Origin: a virus
Taxonomy: Duplodnaviria; Heunggongvirae; Uroviricota; Caudoviricetes
Virus record (IMG/VR): IMGVR_UViG_2923302340_000005
Location: 1 to 35,430 of that record
Reading direction: 5' to 3' (one strand)
Length of the DNA stretch: 35,430 bases
The notes under the pieces were generated by a model. That model had not been told where the DNA came from, ran no database searches, and saw only the letters and a program-made list of their open reading frames with translations. Below, piece by piece: positions 1 to 35,430 of the stretch; position 1 is the stretch's first letter, and every line of letters starts with the position of its first letter. Position numbers and translations under genes: made by a program.

Positions 1-1023
1 TTATGTGGATGAAATGTGGATGCCTCCTTTTAACGGATTAAGTGAAATTGCATCCTGGAGGAAATCAGGAGCGAGGTGCGCATAGGTCATAGTTTGCTGG
101 ATCGTAGCGTGCCCCATAATTCGCTGGAGCGTAAGTATATTTCCTCCATTAATCATAAAGTGAGCAGCAAAGGTATGGCGTAGAACATGTACAGCCTGTC
201 CTTTTGGTAGGTCTGGCTTAACACTGCGAAGCACCTTGCGATATTCCTCATAATTGACGTCAAACAAAAGGCCGGATTTCTTTGTTTTGATCTCACTAAC
301 AACTTCATCAGAGACAGGAATAATTCGAACTTTTCCGTTTTTAGTTTTGTTAAACGTCACGCGATTATTGATGATGTGTTCCGCGCGCAGATTTTTCGCT
401 TCTCCCCATCTCGCCCCAGTACTGAGACAAAGTAGCGTAATCCGCCGGGCATCACCGCTTACTGCATCCAGTAATTTGGCGATTTCTTCCGTGGTGAGAT
501 ACGTCATTTCGGGTGATTTTCGTTTCAAAGAGGGGAGGGCGCGGAGCGGATTTTCTCCGTGAAATTCCCCGGCATTTGCCAGGAGTGTAAACATTCCTCC
601 GAGATCCGACTCATCACGCCGAACAGTAGACTCTTTTACTCCCAAGGATAAACGGGAGCTTCGATAAGCGGCCATGAAACGAGCATTAATCTGGCTAACC
701 CTTGGATCATTCATTTCTTTGATGATTTTTTTCAACCTGGTTAGAACGCCGTTAGCATATGGCTTATTGCGTCCACCCAATTCCCACCATAACGGAAGCA
801 GATCTGAGAGATGACGTTGCTCTGTTGGCTTTTCAAGCCATTCCTTATCGTGCATGTGGCTGAGAACATAACGCTCAAAGGCCACTGCATCTGCCTTTTT
901 CTTAAAAATCCGCTGAATCCGACGTCCACTTCGGCCACGCGGTCTAACATCCACTTTATACCGTCCACCATCGAGCGCTTTAATTGCCATTGGCAAGCCC
1001 TCCGGTGAAACGAGGAAAGACAT
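1..1023 (-). CDS. int: Tyrosine integrase, P2 Int-like
   Basis: 340-aa ORF; C-terminal catalytic region with conserved R...HxxR...Y pattern (VLRHTFAAH, TMTYAHL) typical of phage tyrosine recombinases; sits next to the immunity repressor as in P2. Stop codon at 1-3, so the adjacent att site is outside the window. Confidence 0.9.
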   Translation of the reverse strand: MSFLVSPEGLPMAIKALDGGRYKVDVRPRGRSGRRIQRIFKKKADAVAFERYVLSHMHDKEWLEKPTEQRHLSDLLPLWWELGGRNKPYANGVLTRLKKIIKEMNDPRVSQINARFMAAYRSSRLSLGVKESTVRRDESDLGGMFTLLANAGEFHGENPLRALPSLKRKSPEMTYLTTEEIAKLLDAVSGDARRITLLCLSTGARWGEAKNLRAEHIINNRVTFNKTKNGKVRIIPVSDEVVSEIKTKKSGLLFDVNYEEYRKVLRSVKPDLPKGQAVHVLRHTFAAHFMINGGNILTLQRIMGHATIQQTMTYAHLAPDFLQDAISLNPLKGGIHISST

Positions 1024-32487: not shown

Positions 32488-33597
32488 ATGACCGACACCA
32501 CCATGCAATTGCTCAGTCAGGGCACAGACCCCGTGAAAATGCCGGATTTTGATATTCTCGCGGAGGGTAAAACGCTGTCAGGCGTGGCAGAGCGCCTGAT
32601 GAGCCTGTCACTGACCGACAACCGGGGATTTGAGGCGGACCAGCTCACCATCACGCTGGATGATGCGGATGGTCAGTTGCAGCTACCGCCACGGGGCGCG
32701 CGCCTGACGGTTCTCATTGGCTGGAAAGGCGAACCGCTGACAGAAAAAGGCACTTACATTGTTGATGAAATCGCTCACGAAGGACCGCCGGACAGGCTGA
32801 CTGTTTCAGCCAGAAGCGCAGATTTTCGGGATGAATTTAACGTTAAACGTGAGGTGTCCTGGCATGATGTGACCGTTGAGCGTGTGGTATCCGCCATCGC
32901 TCATCGGTACGGTCTGAAACCGCAAATCAGCGAAATGCTGATGGATATCGAAATCGACCACGCCGACCAGACCGAAGAAAGCGACATGTCCTTTCTTACG
33001 CGCATGGCGGAAATGCTGGGCGCAATCACCACGGTAAAAAGCGGTAATCTGTTATTCATTATGCCAGGCAGTGGCGTGAACGCACAGGGCCAGCCGTTGC
33101 CATCGTTCGCCATCACGCGCAGCAGTGGCGATCGCCATCAGTTCCGCATTGCTGACCGCGAAGCGTATACGGGGGTACGCGCTTACTGGCTTGATCTTAA
33201 TTACGGGAAAAAGAAAAAAGTCAGCGTGAAACGCCGCAAACCGCCAAAAACCAAAAAGGAGAAAAGCAGCAGCCGTGAAGGTGATTATATGGAAGGCGCG
33301 GAAGGCAATGTGTTTGTGTTACGCAAGACTTATCAGAACGAACAGGCAGCAAGACGCGCAGCGGCGGCAAAGTGGCAGCAGCTACAACGCGGAGCCGCAT
33401 CATTCTCCATCACGCTGGCACGTGGTCGTGCAGAACTCTACCCCGAAATGCATGGCACGGTAACAGGATTTAAAAGCGAGATTGATAATCAGGACTGGAT
33501 TATTGCAAAAGCCGAGCACATCATTGATAACAGCGGCTTTACCACGCAGCTTGAGCTTGAGGCAAAAATCCCGGAATGGATAGCAGAAACAGACTGA
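32488..33597 (+). CDS. D: Tail / late control protein, P2 gpD-like
   Basis: Start ATG 32488 behind AAGGAGGGAG (track ORF starts at 32356); matches P2 gpD (LSLTDNRGFEADQL.I.LDD.DGQ..LP.RGA, GWKG). Confidence 0.8.
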   Translation: MTDTTMQLLSQGTDPVKMPDFDILAEGKTLSGVAERLMSLSLTDNRGFEADQLTITLDDADGQLQLPPRGARLTVLIGWKGEPLTEKGTYIVDEIAHEGPPDRLTVSARSADFRDEFNVKREVSWHDVTVERVVSAIAHRYGLKPQISEMLMDIEIDHADQTEESDMSFLTRMAEMLGAITTVKSGNLLFIMPGSGVNAQGQPLPSFAITRSSGDRHQFRIADREAYTGVRAYWLDLNYGKKKKVSVKRRKPPKTKKEKSSSREGDYMEGAEGNVFVLRKTYQNEQAARRAAAAKWQQLQRGAASFSITLARGRAELYPEMHGTVTGFKSEIDNQDWIIAKAEHIIDNSGFTTQLELEAKIPEWIAETD

Positions 33598-33639
33598 ACA
33601 ACTTAGAATAGCGCCAGCACCACGTTAAGGGAGGTCGCT

Positions 33640-33900
33640 ATGTTCCGTTGTCCGCTTTGTGGCGCATCTGCCCGTATCCGCACCAGTCGTCCGGAAAATG
33701 ATTCAAACACCGTGCGGCAAAAGTATTACCAGTGTAACAACCTGGAATGCGGCGTATGCTTCTCAACACTGGAAGCCTTCCATAAATTCACATCAAAACA
33801 CGCCTCCGGCGTTCACTCTTCAGAAGGTATCCCGTGGCATGAGCTGCCAGCTTCACACAGGGGAAACAATCAGATGAGTTTGCCTTTACCTCAGAATTAA
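33640..33900 (+). CDS. ogr: Ogr/Delta-family zinc-finger late transcription activator
   Basis: 86 aa; MF.CPLC...AR.RTSR......Y.QC.N..C matches the Ogr CxxC...CxxC zinc finger; last gene of the phage backbone; AAGGGAGG RBS. Confidence 0.8.
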   Translation: MFRCPLCGASARIRTSRPENDSNTVRQKYYQCNNLECGVCFSTLEAFHKFTSKHASGVHSSEGIPWHELPASHRGNNQMSLPLPQN

Positions 33901-33988
33901 CAGGCAGAATTGCCGGAGTAACAAAAAAGCGATAGATTACGCGCGGGTGCCTTTCGGCTGATGGTCGGAGGGAATACCCGAAGGCCAG

Positions 33989-34225
33989 ATGTGGAAAGGC
34001 CCCGGAAAACATTTCTGTTTAACCGAGGCCCTAACACTTCTTACCTTCGCAAGTAGAAGGTTAGCGCCTCTCCTCTCAGGAGACAAGCGTTATGACGCAA
34101 ATTCCGTTAAAAACCCTGTTACTTTGCATAACTGCGGTAGCGATAATCTGGATCCTCCACACATCACCGTGCGAGTTACGATTCAGGTTTGCTGGCACGG
34201 AAATTGCGGCATTCTTACTATGTAA
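33989..34225 (+). CDS. Mok-like overlapping reading frame (putative)
   Basis: 78-aa ORF in a different frame that spans the hok-like gene, as mok does in hok/sok loci; no independent support. Confidence 0.3.
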   Translation: MWKGPGKHFCLTEALTLLTFASRRLAPLLSGDKRYDANSVKNPVTLHNCGSDNLDPPHITVRVTIQVCWHGNCGILTM

Positions 34226-34232
34226 TAAGTAA
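34092..34232 (+). CDS. hok: Hok/Gef-family type I toxin (46 aa)
   Basis: Not in the ORF track. AGGAG 9 nt upstream of ATG 34092; translation MTQIPLKTLLLCITAVAIIWILHTSPCELRFRFAGTEIAAFLLCNK has the Hok signature: hydrophobic helix with CxT, then CE(L/V)R.R....E(I/V)AAF..C. Confidence 0.75.
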   Translation: MTQIPLKTLLLCITAVAIIWILHTSPCELRFRFAGTEIAAFLLCNK

Positions 34233-34319
34233 GATAACCGCGACGGGGGAGTAATCCCCCGTCAATCGGTTGCTAAGGTTGGTCGAAACGGCACCCTATC
34301 TCACAGACATGAACAACAA

Positions 34320-34353
34320 ACCCGCAGCGTAAAAACTGCGGGTTTTCTTTTTG
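34320..34353 (+). terminator. Rho-independent terminator at the 3' end of the hok-like transcript
   Basis: Stem CCCGCAG / CTGCGGG followed by TTTTCTTTTT; a second hairpin GGTGCCCTC / GAGGGCACC lies at 34354-34376. Confidence 0.6.
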
Positions 34354-34481
34354 GTGCCCTCACAAATGAGGGCACCATACATAAGCAATAGGCATAACAG
34401 ATCGATGCAATAAATCCGATCGATAAAAACGATCGATTTGCTATCATATCGGCAGCAGTAACCACACAAGAGGTGCCGCAA

Positions 34482-34679
34482 ATGACGCAAAATGTACGAT
34501 GCAAAAATTGCAACAAACTACTTGCCCGCGCCTCATTTCACTACATTGAAATAAAATGTCCGCGCTGCAAAACACTTAACCAGATAACGAGAGCCATCGA
34601 GCACCCCACACACATGAGGAGTTATGACCGTGGGGATCGCAATCCAGCACCAACCAGCACATACACCGGAACACACTAA
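34482..34679 (+). CDS. com: Com-like zinc-finger protein (Mu Com family)
   Basis: 65 aa from ATG 34482 (track starts at GTG 34473); RCKNCNKLL...HYIEIKCPRCK is nearly identical to the Mu Com zinc finger as I recall it; 3' end overlaps the methyltransferase start by 56 nt. Confidence 0.75.
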   Translation: MTQNVRCKNCNKLLARASFHYIEIKCPRCKTLNQITRAIEHPTHMRSYDRGDRNPAPTSTYTGTH

Positions 34680-35430
34680 GGTTTATCAGACTGACAATGC
34701 CACGCTCTGTCGTGGGAATGCGCTGGAAATATTGCCGCTGATTGAGCCAGAAAGCATTGATGCCTTAATCACTGACCCGCCTTACAGTTCGGGCGCGACA
34801 CACAAGGCCGGACGCACCAACCAGGGCAGCCATGCAAAATATCTGAACGGCGAGAACCTTCACCGCTTTGATGGGTTCGCGGGTGAAAACATGGACGCCC
34901 GTTCGTGGGCTTACTGGACACAATTATGGATGGCACAGGCACACCGCGCAGTCAGGCCGGGCGGTTATGCCCTGGTATTTACTGACTGGCGACAACTACC
35001 AGCTTTAACCGATGCGTTTCAGGCCAGTGGCTTTACATGGCGCGGCATCATTGCGTGGAACAAGGGGAGGGGGTCACGAACACCACATACCGGGTATTTC
35101 CGGCATCAGTGCGAATACATCGTCTGGGGCAGCAAAGGCCATTTAGATAAATCGCCTTCGGGACCGTTCGACGGCTGCATGACGTTCCCAGTTATCCCGT
35201 CAAAGAAAATGCACCCGACCGGAAAACCAGAAGAACTAATGGCGGAACTGGTCAGGACTGTGAATAGTGGCGGAACAGTCCTTGATCCTTTTATGGGGTC
35301 AGGGACAACGGGTGTGGCTGCACTGAAAGCAGGGCGAAAATTTATTGGTATAGAAACCAGTGATCATTATTTTGAGGTAGCAGCGCAGCGGCTTCGGGGG
35401 ACTATTACCACAACCATTTCGGCTACATAA
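34624..35430 (+). CDS. DNA methyltransferase, beta-class amino-methyltransferase (N6-adenine or N4-cytosine)
   Basis: 268 aa, complete (TAA at 35428-35430); motif IV DPPY (ITDPPYSS) precedes motif I (FMGSGTTG), the beta-class order; GAGGA RBS. Confidence 0.8.
   Translation: MTVGIAIQHQPAHTPEHTKVYQTDNATLCRGNALEILPLIEPESIDALITDPPYSSGATHKAGRTNQGSHAKYLNGENLHRFDGFAGENMDARSWAYWTQLWMAQAHRAVRPGGYALVFTDWRQLPALTDAFQASGFTWRGIIAWNKGRGSRTPHTGYFRHQCEYIVWGSKGHLDKSPSGPFDGCMTFPVIPSKKMHPTGKPEELMAELVRTVNSGGTVLDPFMGSGTTGVAALKAGRKFIGIETSDHYFEVAAQRLRGTITTTISAT

Follow-up and report, generated by a model that had tools for sequence, protein, structure and literature searches.

A likely hok/sok-family toxin–antitoxin module behind ogr in a P2-like prophage, and its doubtful mok frame

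Among the closest described systems to the locus reported here is hok/mok/sok (parB) of plasmid R1, which shares with it a Hok-family toxin and a series of elements, in part predicted here, in the same order: promoter, tac, ucb/GAGG hairpin, sok promoter, sequestered hok SD, hok, GC hairpin and fbi. In R1 (PMC9841398), mokB and mokC alike, only a few nucleotides separate the GAGG in the ucb hairpin's 3′ arm from the mok AUG behind it. Among the K-12 relatives, the hok RNAs begin with GGGUGCC (hokB) or GGGUGCU (hokC), and the annotated K-12 Sok RNAs of 57–59 nt map to the equivalent leader segment and served to place Sok in the present locus. Members of the family also reside in prophages. hokW-sokW of the Stx2 prophage Sp5 was shown to be a type I toxin–antitoxin system, partly dependent on RNase III and Hfq, that helps the induced phage to lyse the cell and to be released (PMC8621323). 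Furthermore, a Hok peptide catalogue from 2025–26 found Hok to be enriched in prophages (bioRxiv 10.1101/2025.08.07.668861). The locus examined here resembles hokW-sokW in being a prophage-borne hok/sok (PMC8621323), and differs from R1 in being carried on a prophage rather than a plasmid.

The window, i.e. the whole stretch of DNA that was analysed, spans 35,430 nucleotides of a tailed-virus record (IMGVR_UViG_2923302340_000005). An ORF listing of positions 33400–35430, together with profile searches, gave the following genes around hok:

up to 33597, plus strand: tail gene resembling gpD of P2
33640–33900, plus strand: ogr, a late-gene activator (PF04606 Ogr_Delta, E=5e-14), upstream neighbor of hok
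34092–34232, plus strand: hok coding sequence, 46 aa (PF01848 above the gathering score), product MTQIPLKTLLLCITAVAIIWILHTSPCELRFRFAGTEIAAFLLCNK
34473–34679, plus strand: Com-like zinc-ribbon gene (PF10122)
34624–35430, plus strand: N6/N4 DNA methyltransferase gene (PF01555), overlapping the Com-like gene

An earlier, sequence-only reading had placed a hok-like gene directly after ogr, and the Ogr_Delta match at 33640–33900 bears this position out. RefSeq, where this copy of ogr is named 'ogr/Delta-like zinc finger family protein', gives the order tail genes, gpD, ogr, hok, com and methyltransferase, followed by the host gene raiA; P2-like prophages with the identical ogr-hok-com-methyltransferase order likewise adjoin raiA. 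The carrier is a P2-like E. coli prophage of the P88/Xuanwuvirus type, at whose right end the probable hok/sok module sits as a cargo 'moron' between ogr and the com/methyltransferase pair.

The 46-codon ORF, proposed as Hok from its letters alone, belongs to the Hok family by profile search. Its product scores 33.8 bits (E=2.5e-8) with Pfam PF01848 (HOK_GEF), whose gathering score is 22, over positions 7–42 of a 42-position profile, and PHROG 251 ('MokW-like host killing') agrees (E=2.8e-13). Neither of two NCBIfam models reaches its cut-off on this product (NF007279, Hok family toxin, 25.2 bits against 73; NF007290, HokA, 27.7 bits against 89); the clade of 46-aa Hok proteins falls outside the NCBIfam models and is named via Pfam only. 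At 46 aa, the toxin is shorter than R1 Hok (52 aa), with which it shares 35% identity over 34 aa. The family logo, in catalogue numbering, comprises C16, T18, L30, C31, E32 and E41 behind an N-terminal hydrophobic helix. Read by eye, the product keeps C12, T14, C27, E28 and E37 along with a hydrophobic run, LLLCITAVAIIWIL, and the conserved Leu before Cys (the L30 equivalent) is P26, within SPCEL. The gene also has the ribosome-binding site that had been claimed for it, AGGAGA at 34078–34083, 8 nt 5′ of the ATG.

Selection on the frame can be read from its relatives. Nucleotide diversity at codon positions 1, 2 and 3 of the hok frame is 0.204, 0.105 and 0.315, a coding signature whose contrast between the second and third positions indicates purifying selection; of 69 unique related loci from several phage types, 67 have kept hok intact. 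These data bear on the idea that the ORF arose by chance in a structured spacer or terminator region after ogr and has no toxin function. Its length of only 46 codons and its absence from the annotation of some phage records would fit such an origin, which is nonetheless effectively refuted by the Pfam and PHROG matches above threshold and the codon periodicity in the hok frame; homologous loci moreover occur in unrelated contexts (lambdoid, Stx and P2-like phages). We regard a chance ORF as having next to no probability.

Contrary to what the sequence-only reading had implied, the gene is not new: it is annotated in RefSeq, appears in phage records as 'MokW-like host killing', and its exact peptide stands in the Hok catalogue as sequence '>1818' (bioRxiv 10.1101/2025.08.07.668861). 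The identical RefSeq protein, WP_032140709.1 ('Hok/Gef family protein'), is annotated for at least 25 genomes of E. coli. A search with 500 bp centered on the locus gave 25 records of complete E. coli genomes with no less than 99% identity, and weaker matches in 1,755 of 5,426 complete E. coli genomes. Phage Chuche and the P2-like Xuanwuvirus phages P88, P88_4B11 and Shae_phiSM carry the locus in the equivalent place; RefSeq records of E. coli and those of P88 and Chuche list the hok ORF, which the records of Shae_phiSM and many Stx2 phages leave unannotated. The 46-aa clade, found after ogr in these phages too (P88 gp52, Chuche CDS0012, Xuanwuvirus P88_4B11 gp32; PHROG 251), corresponds to catalogue clusters 72, 79 and 82 plus sequence 1818 (bioRxiv 10.1101/2025.08.07.668861). 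Lambdoid and Stx phages have related loci as well, as do 306 stretches of IMG/VR. A scan of genome contigs returned six loci, three of them in assemblies of implausible hosts. For annotation, the consequence is a small toxin gene and a very likely antisense RNA to be added after ogr in those P2-like prophage records in which they are missing.

Around the hok frame, the plus strand can be read as an R1-like mRNA:

33910–33938, plus strand: predicted hok promoter (-35 TTGCCG 33910–33915, 17-nt spacer, -10 TAGATT 33933–33938)
33945–34352, plus strand: predicted full-length hok mRNA, ~405 nt (fold and comparative pairing)
33945–33956, plus strand: tac element at the 5′ end, GGGUGCCUUUCG, pairing with fbi in the full-length RNA
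33998–34030, plus strand: ucb/GAGG hairpin, GGCCCCGG ... CCGAGGCC, homologous to the anti-SD/mok-SD hairpin of R1
34064–34091, plus strand: hairpin sequestering the hok SD (UCUCCU 34069–34074 with AGGAGA 34078–34083, within an outer stem)
34242–34263, plus strand: GC-rich 3′ hairpin, GACGGGGGA-gtaa-TCCCCCGTC, after the hok stop codon and upstream of fbi
34284–34296, plus strand: fbi element, CGAAACGGCACCC, partner of tac (minimum free energy fold, duplex scan, covariation)
34318–34355, plus strand: intrinsic terminator, AAACCCGCAG-8-CTGCGGGTTT followed by TCTTTTT, hairpin at 34318–34345

Spacing and an alignment with R1, hokB and hokC would put the +1 of this mRNA at about G33945. In that alignment the first and last T of the predicted -10 (T33 and T38) are invariant, and the 6 nt between the -10 and GGGUGCC equal the distance in hokB. 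A consensus promoter scan missed this promoter (8 of 12 matches, below threshold) and likewise the predicted sok promoter (below threshold), so that the placement of both rests solely on homology and conservation.

The earlier description of a hairpin-rich region ending in an intrinsic terminator was accurate. The RNA from 33945 to 34352 folds to -168.2 kcal/mol, with z = -8.7 relative to shuffles, and the terminator hairpin occupies 34318–34345. Matches of this region to the Rfam families BSnc120 and Thr_leader were rejected, being far below their gathering scores and reflecting the terminator hairpin only. The architecture of a hok mRNA around the ORF, likewise proposed beforehand, is seen in the minimum free energy structure as a tac/fbi fold-back, and this fold-back covaries in relatives. 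For the comparative test, this fold was transferred to an alignment comprising hokB and 22 representatives of the clade. Across these 23 sequences the predicted structure was 81.2% paired, a share inflated by the derivation of the structure from the window sequence itself, against 35–44% for slid controls; pairs changed on both sides numbered 34 against 12–18 in the slid controls, and none of 500 shuffles attained the observed pairing values. RNA structure with compensatory changes of this kind points to ongoing selection on the RNA.

Several helices contribute to this signal. The tac-fbi helix (helix 1) is 92.2% paired with five pairs changed on both sides, the hok SD hairpin (helix 8) 99.3% paired with two such pairs, and the GC-rich 3′ hairpin (helix 18) 96.6% paired with five. 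The ucb/GAGG hairpin (helices 5–6) is 85–89% paired, helix 5 at 85.5%, and its minus-strand version would form the terminator stem of the predicted Sok. The fold also joins the hok start region to 34197–34212 by a long-range helix. By analogy with R1 (PMC9841398), the GC-rich 3′ hairpin is likely to act as the stop for 3′ trimming and as a stabilizer of the truncated mRNA.

The fold-back itself had been proposed between GGGTGCC at 33945–33951 and a downstream GGCACC. Two such partners exist, at 34290 and 34371, and the relevant one is at 34290–34296, where pairing with the 5′ end is extended by CGAAA/UUUCG; GGCACC at 34371 was rejected as fbi, lying past the terminator in a hairpin that is unconserved outside close P2-like relatives. 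When the first 14 nt of the RNA were scanned against the window as a duplex (mean -10.0, sd 3.0 kcal/mol), fbi was the best partner among 35,400 positions (-23.6 kcal/mol). Within the clade, three tac-fbi pairs covary (CG 14/GC 9, GC 17/AU 6, UA 12/CG 5). Compensation is also seen between families, with R1 GGCGCUU/AAGCGCC, hokB GGGUGCCUGAG/CUCAUGGCACCC and the window locus GGGUGCCUUUCG/CGAAACGGCACCC; K-12 hokA, whose leader is cut by IS150, and hokE were left out of this comparison. The tac/fbi core of the window differs from that of R1 at five of seven positions, with compensation, while the fbi core of hokB is GGCACCC as in the window. Duplex energies of own and crossed tac/fbi pairs among 21 clade variants (means -30.3 and -29.1 kcal/mol) are uninformative, since tac is nearly invariant within the clade.

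Two other partners of tac are available, and they recall the alternative structures of R1. One is 33963–33979: when the RNA is truncated after the 3′ hairpin, folding predicts that the 5′ end refolds into a local hairpin at 33945–33979, which resembles the metastable/tac stem of R1 (PMC9841398). The other is GAAAGGCCCC on the ucb side (33994–34003), 90% complementary to GGUGCCUUUC and the fifth best distinct duplex site in the window. R1 and the window are alike in that tac-fbi pairing contains a bulge and the tac-ucb alternative is mismatched at position 3. They differ at the 3′ end, where the window has a terminator ~25 nt after fbi, unlike R1. Counting against the reading, the predicted primary transcript runs on for ~55 nt behind fbi, terminator included, and so does not end with it.

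On the minus strand, an antisense RNA and its promoter are predicted as follows:

33989–34050, minus strand: predicted Sok RNA, ~62 nt (ends aligned from annotated K-12 sokB and sokC)
34058–34086, minus strand: predicted sok promoter (-35 TTGTCT 34086→34081, 17-nt spacer, -10 TAACCT 34063→34058)

An antisense RNA is suggested by the leader, which by sequence appears homologous to the region targeted by annotated Sok RNAs. Rfam RF01794 ('sok') aligns over its full length (1–157) with 33945–34103 on the plus strand, at E=3.3e-9, but its 47.4 bits fall short of the gathering score (59); K-12 and R1 controls gave 87–118 bits, the K-12 leaders accounting for 110–118 against the 47 of the window. 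On K-12 and an R1-like plasmid, this model runs in the sense of the hok mRNA leader, and its matches to the hokB and hokC leaders and to the leader studied here share that orientation. In K-12, SokB and SokC as annotated are antisense to model positions ~44–102, and from this homology we infer a Sok RNA at complement(33989..34050). The minus-strand Sok that the sequence-only reading expected over the mok leader can thus be placed by homology, although it would not lie over a mok leader in the R1 sense and would instead cover the first 20 codons of a different, 78-codon frame.

The predicted Sok has a 5′ single-stranded tail, a 10+5-bp hairpin and a UUUCC tail (-29.5 kcal/mol, z = -5.3). With only three U, its terminator tail is weak, comparable to the tails read off SokB and R1 Sok. 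Its predicted promoter equals in position and spacing the TTGCGC-17-TATCCT of the R1-like locus and, like the antisense promoter of R1, would sit just upstream of the hok SD. AGGTTA, the complement of the sok -10, is kept in all eight close relatives compared and in nearly all representatives.

Taken with the family membership of the toxin, these features make it very probable that the locus is a hok/sok-family type I toxin–antitoxin module in a P2-like prophage, and we consider it likely that the module is active. In the mechanism that we propose, an mRNA of ~405 nt starting near 33945 would encode the 46-aa membrane toxin. The full-length form would be inert, with tac clamped to fbi and the hok SD locked in its local hairpin. 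Slow 3′ trimming to the GC hairpin at 34242–34263 would remove fbi and let the 5′ end refold, by analogy with R1 (PMC9841398). A short-lived Sok, made from its own promoter (34086→34058), would then pair with the leader of the refolded mRNA, leading to RNase III decay and to blocked ribosome entry at AUG 33989. Upon loss of the prophage or of Sok transcription, or upon some phage-related signal, the stable mRNA would outlast Sok; once Sok had decayed, Hok would be made and the membrane depolarized, in keeping with the R1 paradigm (PMC9841398). What the sequences themselves show of this scheme is membership of the Hok family, the covarying fold-back and hairpins, and the kinship of the leader with known Sok targets; both promoters, the ends of Sok, trimming from the 3′ end, cleavage by RNase III and toxicity are modeled on the described systems.

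How hok translation is opened is the point at which the locus departs from its models. The leader holds one further ORF:

33989–34225, plus strand: 78-codon 'mok-like' ORF overlapping hok in another frame, with an SD-like GAAGG at 33980–33984

A longer mok-like frame overlapping hok was part of the sequence-only reading. Such a frame does exist, from the ATG at 33989 to 34225; what did not hold up is its standing as a conserved mok, and the canonical AUG is absent. Its product matched no family in Pfam, NCBIfam or PHROG. In an alignment, the mok AUGs of R1, mokB and mokC come no more than ~10 nt into the segment complementary to Sok. The aligned positions in the window, 34037–34043, hold no start codon, either in the window locus or in its relatives, in contrast to the start codon present in R1. 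The 78-codon frame begins ~50 nt upstream of the canonical position, where the predicted Sok duplex has its opposite edge: mokB and mokC start at the 5′ side of Sok, whereas the only long frame of the present leader starts at its 3′ end.

These observations are to be weighed against a canonical three-gene reading, in which the 78-codon frame is the true mok, required for Hok, and Sok acts by blocking mok initiation. Much about the window allele suits it. The frame crosses the hok SD hairpin and ends 7 nt before the hok stop, like R1 mok, and its AUG has the GAAGG 4 nt upstream. Moreover, the predicted Sok duplex (33989–34050) reaches just to this AUG, so that Sok would block it, and it can be argued that a sequestered hok SD needs some upstream translation. 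The start site itself, an AUG or GUG with GAAGG, is found in 19 of 23 clade representatives. Since it crosses the SD hairpin and starts at the edge of the Sok duplex, the frame could, in the window allele, open the hok SD hairpin and act as mok.

The comparison across the clade speaks against this reading, beginning with the shifted start described above. In 36 of 67 analysable unique clade loci, no ORF runs into the region where hok is initiated. The AUG at 33989 is used in 11 (eight of them near-identical to the window), and an overlapping GUG in another frame in ~13. One or the other, AUG(+45) or GUG(+47), is open in ~36% of loci, which is the level expected by chance for two 30-codon frames. 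In seven close relatives, the equivalent of AUG 33989 opens ORFs of 1–24 codons that stop before the hok SD, and six of the seven have no ORF in any frame reading into hok. The closest Hok alleles (L022 and L023) lack the 78-codon frame, and one large sub-clade has AUG-UGA at the start site. Lastly, codon periodicity is absent in the leader part of the frame, with diversities of 0.203, 0.192 and 0.195 at the three codon positions.

Mok coupling is therefore unproven, given the shifted start, the absent canonical AUG and the 36 of 67 loci that have no ORF. Because the 78-codon frame is unconserved in the clade, we lean towards judging it incidental, while granting that it may be a true mok. That Hok translation depends on it seems to us somewhat doubtful, and the full three-gene reading can be entertained only tentatively. 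The window allele, with its long frame from AUG 33989, is set apart from most of the 46-aa clade, which has none; in the clade, Hok is probably expressed without canonical mok coupling. Expression independent of mok might come about through decay triggered by Sok together with a refolding that directly releases the hok SD, or through a variable AUG/GUG start site at +45/+47 serving as a ribosome-loading site that is indifferent to frame.

The missing canonical mok start also invites the opposite conclusion, that the hok SD hairpin, with no mok to open it, stays closed, leaving a decayed, non-expressible and inactive relic in which the toxin ORF and the RNA scaffold persist. Chromosomal hok loci of K-12 offer a precedent, being often inactivated (IS186 adjoins hokC and IS150 sits in the hokA/mokA leader), and the conserved Leu beside Cys has become Pro. 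A relic would not be expected to show the purifying selection on the Hok frame or its integrity in 67 of 69 unique loci, nor the compensatory changes in RNA structure, and 1,755 of the 5,426 complete E. coli genomes still carry the locus. The Pro substitution is countered by experiments on other Hok proteins. R1 Hok with L30 changed to Ala remained toxic. In the catalogue study, the cloned constructs include the relatives 72_1589, 72_1621, 79_1563 and 82_1289, drawn from clusters 72, 79 and 82, one of which is an 'SPCE' type like the 46-aa product; three of 45 constructs were non-toxic, and these four relatives were not among them (bioRxiv 10.1101/2025.08.07.668861). Relatives that include the SPCE type are thus among the constructs reported toxic, and we consider a relic unlikely.

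For the 46-aa phage clade as a whole, we put forward, as a tentative proposal, that canonical mok has been lost, that Hok is controlled independently of mok, and that cassettes are swapped within the RNA scaffold. If upheld experimentally, the loss of mok would mean that the textbook hok/mok/sok model needs qualifying for a good part of the hok loci found in nature. The cassette part of this proposal would have the Sok-recognition segment and the toxin coding sequence exchanged in a conserved scaffold, thereby avoiding cross-talk among the hok copies of one genome. The window locus is itself a mosaic allele. Compared with the copies in P2-like phages, its leader is 100% identical and its terminator 98%, while the central ~190 bp comprising the sok promoter, the hok SD and the hok coding sequence are 62–71% identical to P88-type copies.

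As to what such a module might do for a P2-like prophage, candidate roles are stabilization of the prophage, exclusion of other phages, and tuning of lysis after induction; the part that hokW-sokW plays in lysis makes a biological role for a phage-borne hok plausible (cf. PMC8621323). HokW of Sp5 itself probably belongs to a different subfamily; it is found in a lambdoid phage, 51 aa long and 44% identical to R1 Hok (PMC8621323). With 51 aa against 46, it is probably not the Stx-phage homolog that matches the window toxin at 76%.

The hok locus (window 33905-34352) is a mosaic when its sequence is compared with the other P2-like copies in P88, Chuche and E. coli 2013C-3250, its centre being far more diverged than its flanks. 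Promoter and leader (33905-33988) match these three copies at 100% identity, and the stretch from fbi (the 3′ pairing partner of tac, the 5′ end of the predicted hok mRNA) to the terminator is 98% identical. Identity falls to 66-71% in the segment containing the predicted sok promoter and the hok Shine-Dalgarno sequence, and to 62-63% in the hok coding sequence; the Hok peptides share 48-50% of their residues. From these comparisons, it looks as if the RNA scaffold is conserved, while the toxin coding sequence and the segment with the promoter and 5′ end of Sok (the predicted antisense RNA) are exchanged as a cassette.

At window positions 33989-33994, GAAGGCCNGAUGUGG contains a pair of start codons that overlap but belong to separate frames, an AUG at +45 and a GUG at +47 (counted from the predicted hok mRNA start). 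This AUG/GUG site is kept in 19 of the 23 representatives of the clade of 46-aa phage Hok relatives; the frames downstream of it are not conserved, and in one large sub-clade the site equivalent to 33989 reads AUG-UGA, a start followed directly by a stop. Base pairing in the RNA (tac/ucb, dcb), and not coding, may be what keeps GAAGGCCNGAUGUGG conserved.

An identical hok locus (100%) is found in E. coli 2014EL-1346-6, where an IS100 (IS21-family) insertion interrupts com downstream of hok (L001 4582-6579). In a scan of genome contigs, three loci (L091, L092 and L095) encode Hok peptides identical or near-identical to E. coli phage types, in assemblies labeled as a Planococcaceae MAG, Vagococcus sp. 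and Xanthomonas pisi. Enterobacterial contamination probably accounts for these contigs, and the labeled organisms are probably not their real hosts.

Three further features concern the surroundings of the locus and the window ends:
1-1023, minus strand: tyrosine integrase gene (340 aa), at whose end the window exactly begins
34353-34376: perfect 10-bp hairpin, GGTGCCCTCA-caaa-TGAGGGCACC, directly 3′ of the hok terminator
34420-34447: promoter-like site, TCGATA-16-TATCAT, just downstream of a GATCGAT cluster and before the com/methyltransferase pair

The hairpin holds GGTGCC/GGCACC, hexamers also found in tac and fbi, and is restricted to the closest P2-like relatives. Further downstream, GATCGAT occurs three times within 35 bp (34400, 34418 and 34431); over the whole window, GATC occurs once per 403 bp. 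This cluster (34400-34447 region) lies just 5′ of the promoter-like site and of com and the methyltransferase gene, which overlap each other. The com-mom region of phage Mu is under Dam/OxyR control, and the layout here is reminiscent of it, although the enzyme is an N6/N4 methyltransferase and not Mom. The last base of the methyltransferase stop codon is the last base of the window (35430). Because the window is bounded by this stop codon and the integrase gene end, it contains neither att site; the gene flanking it on the right in complete genomes is raiA.
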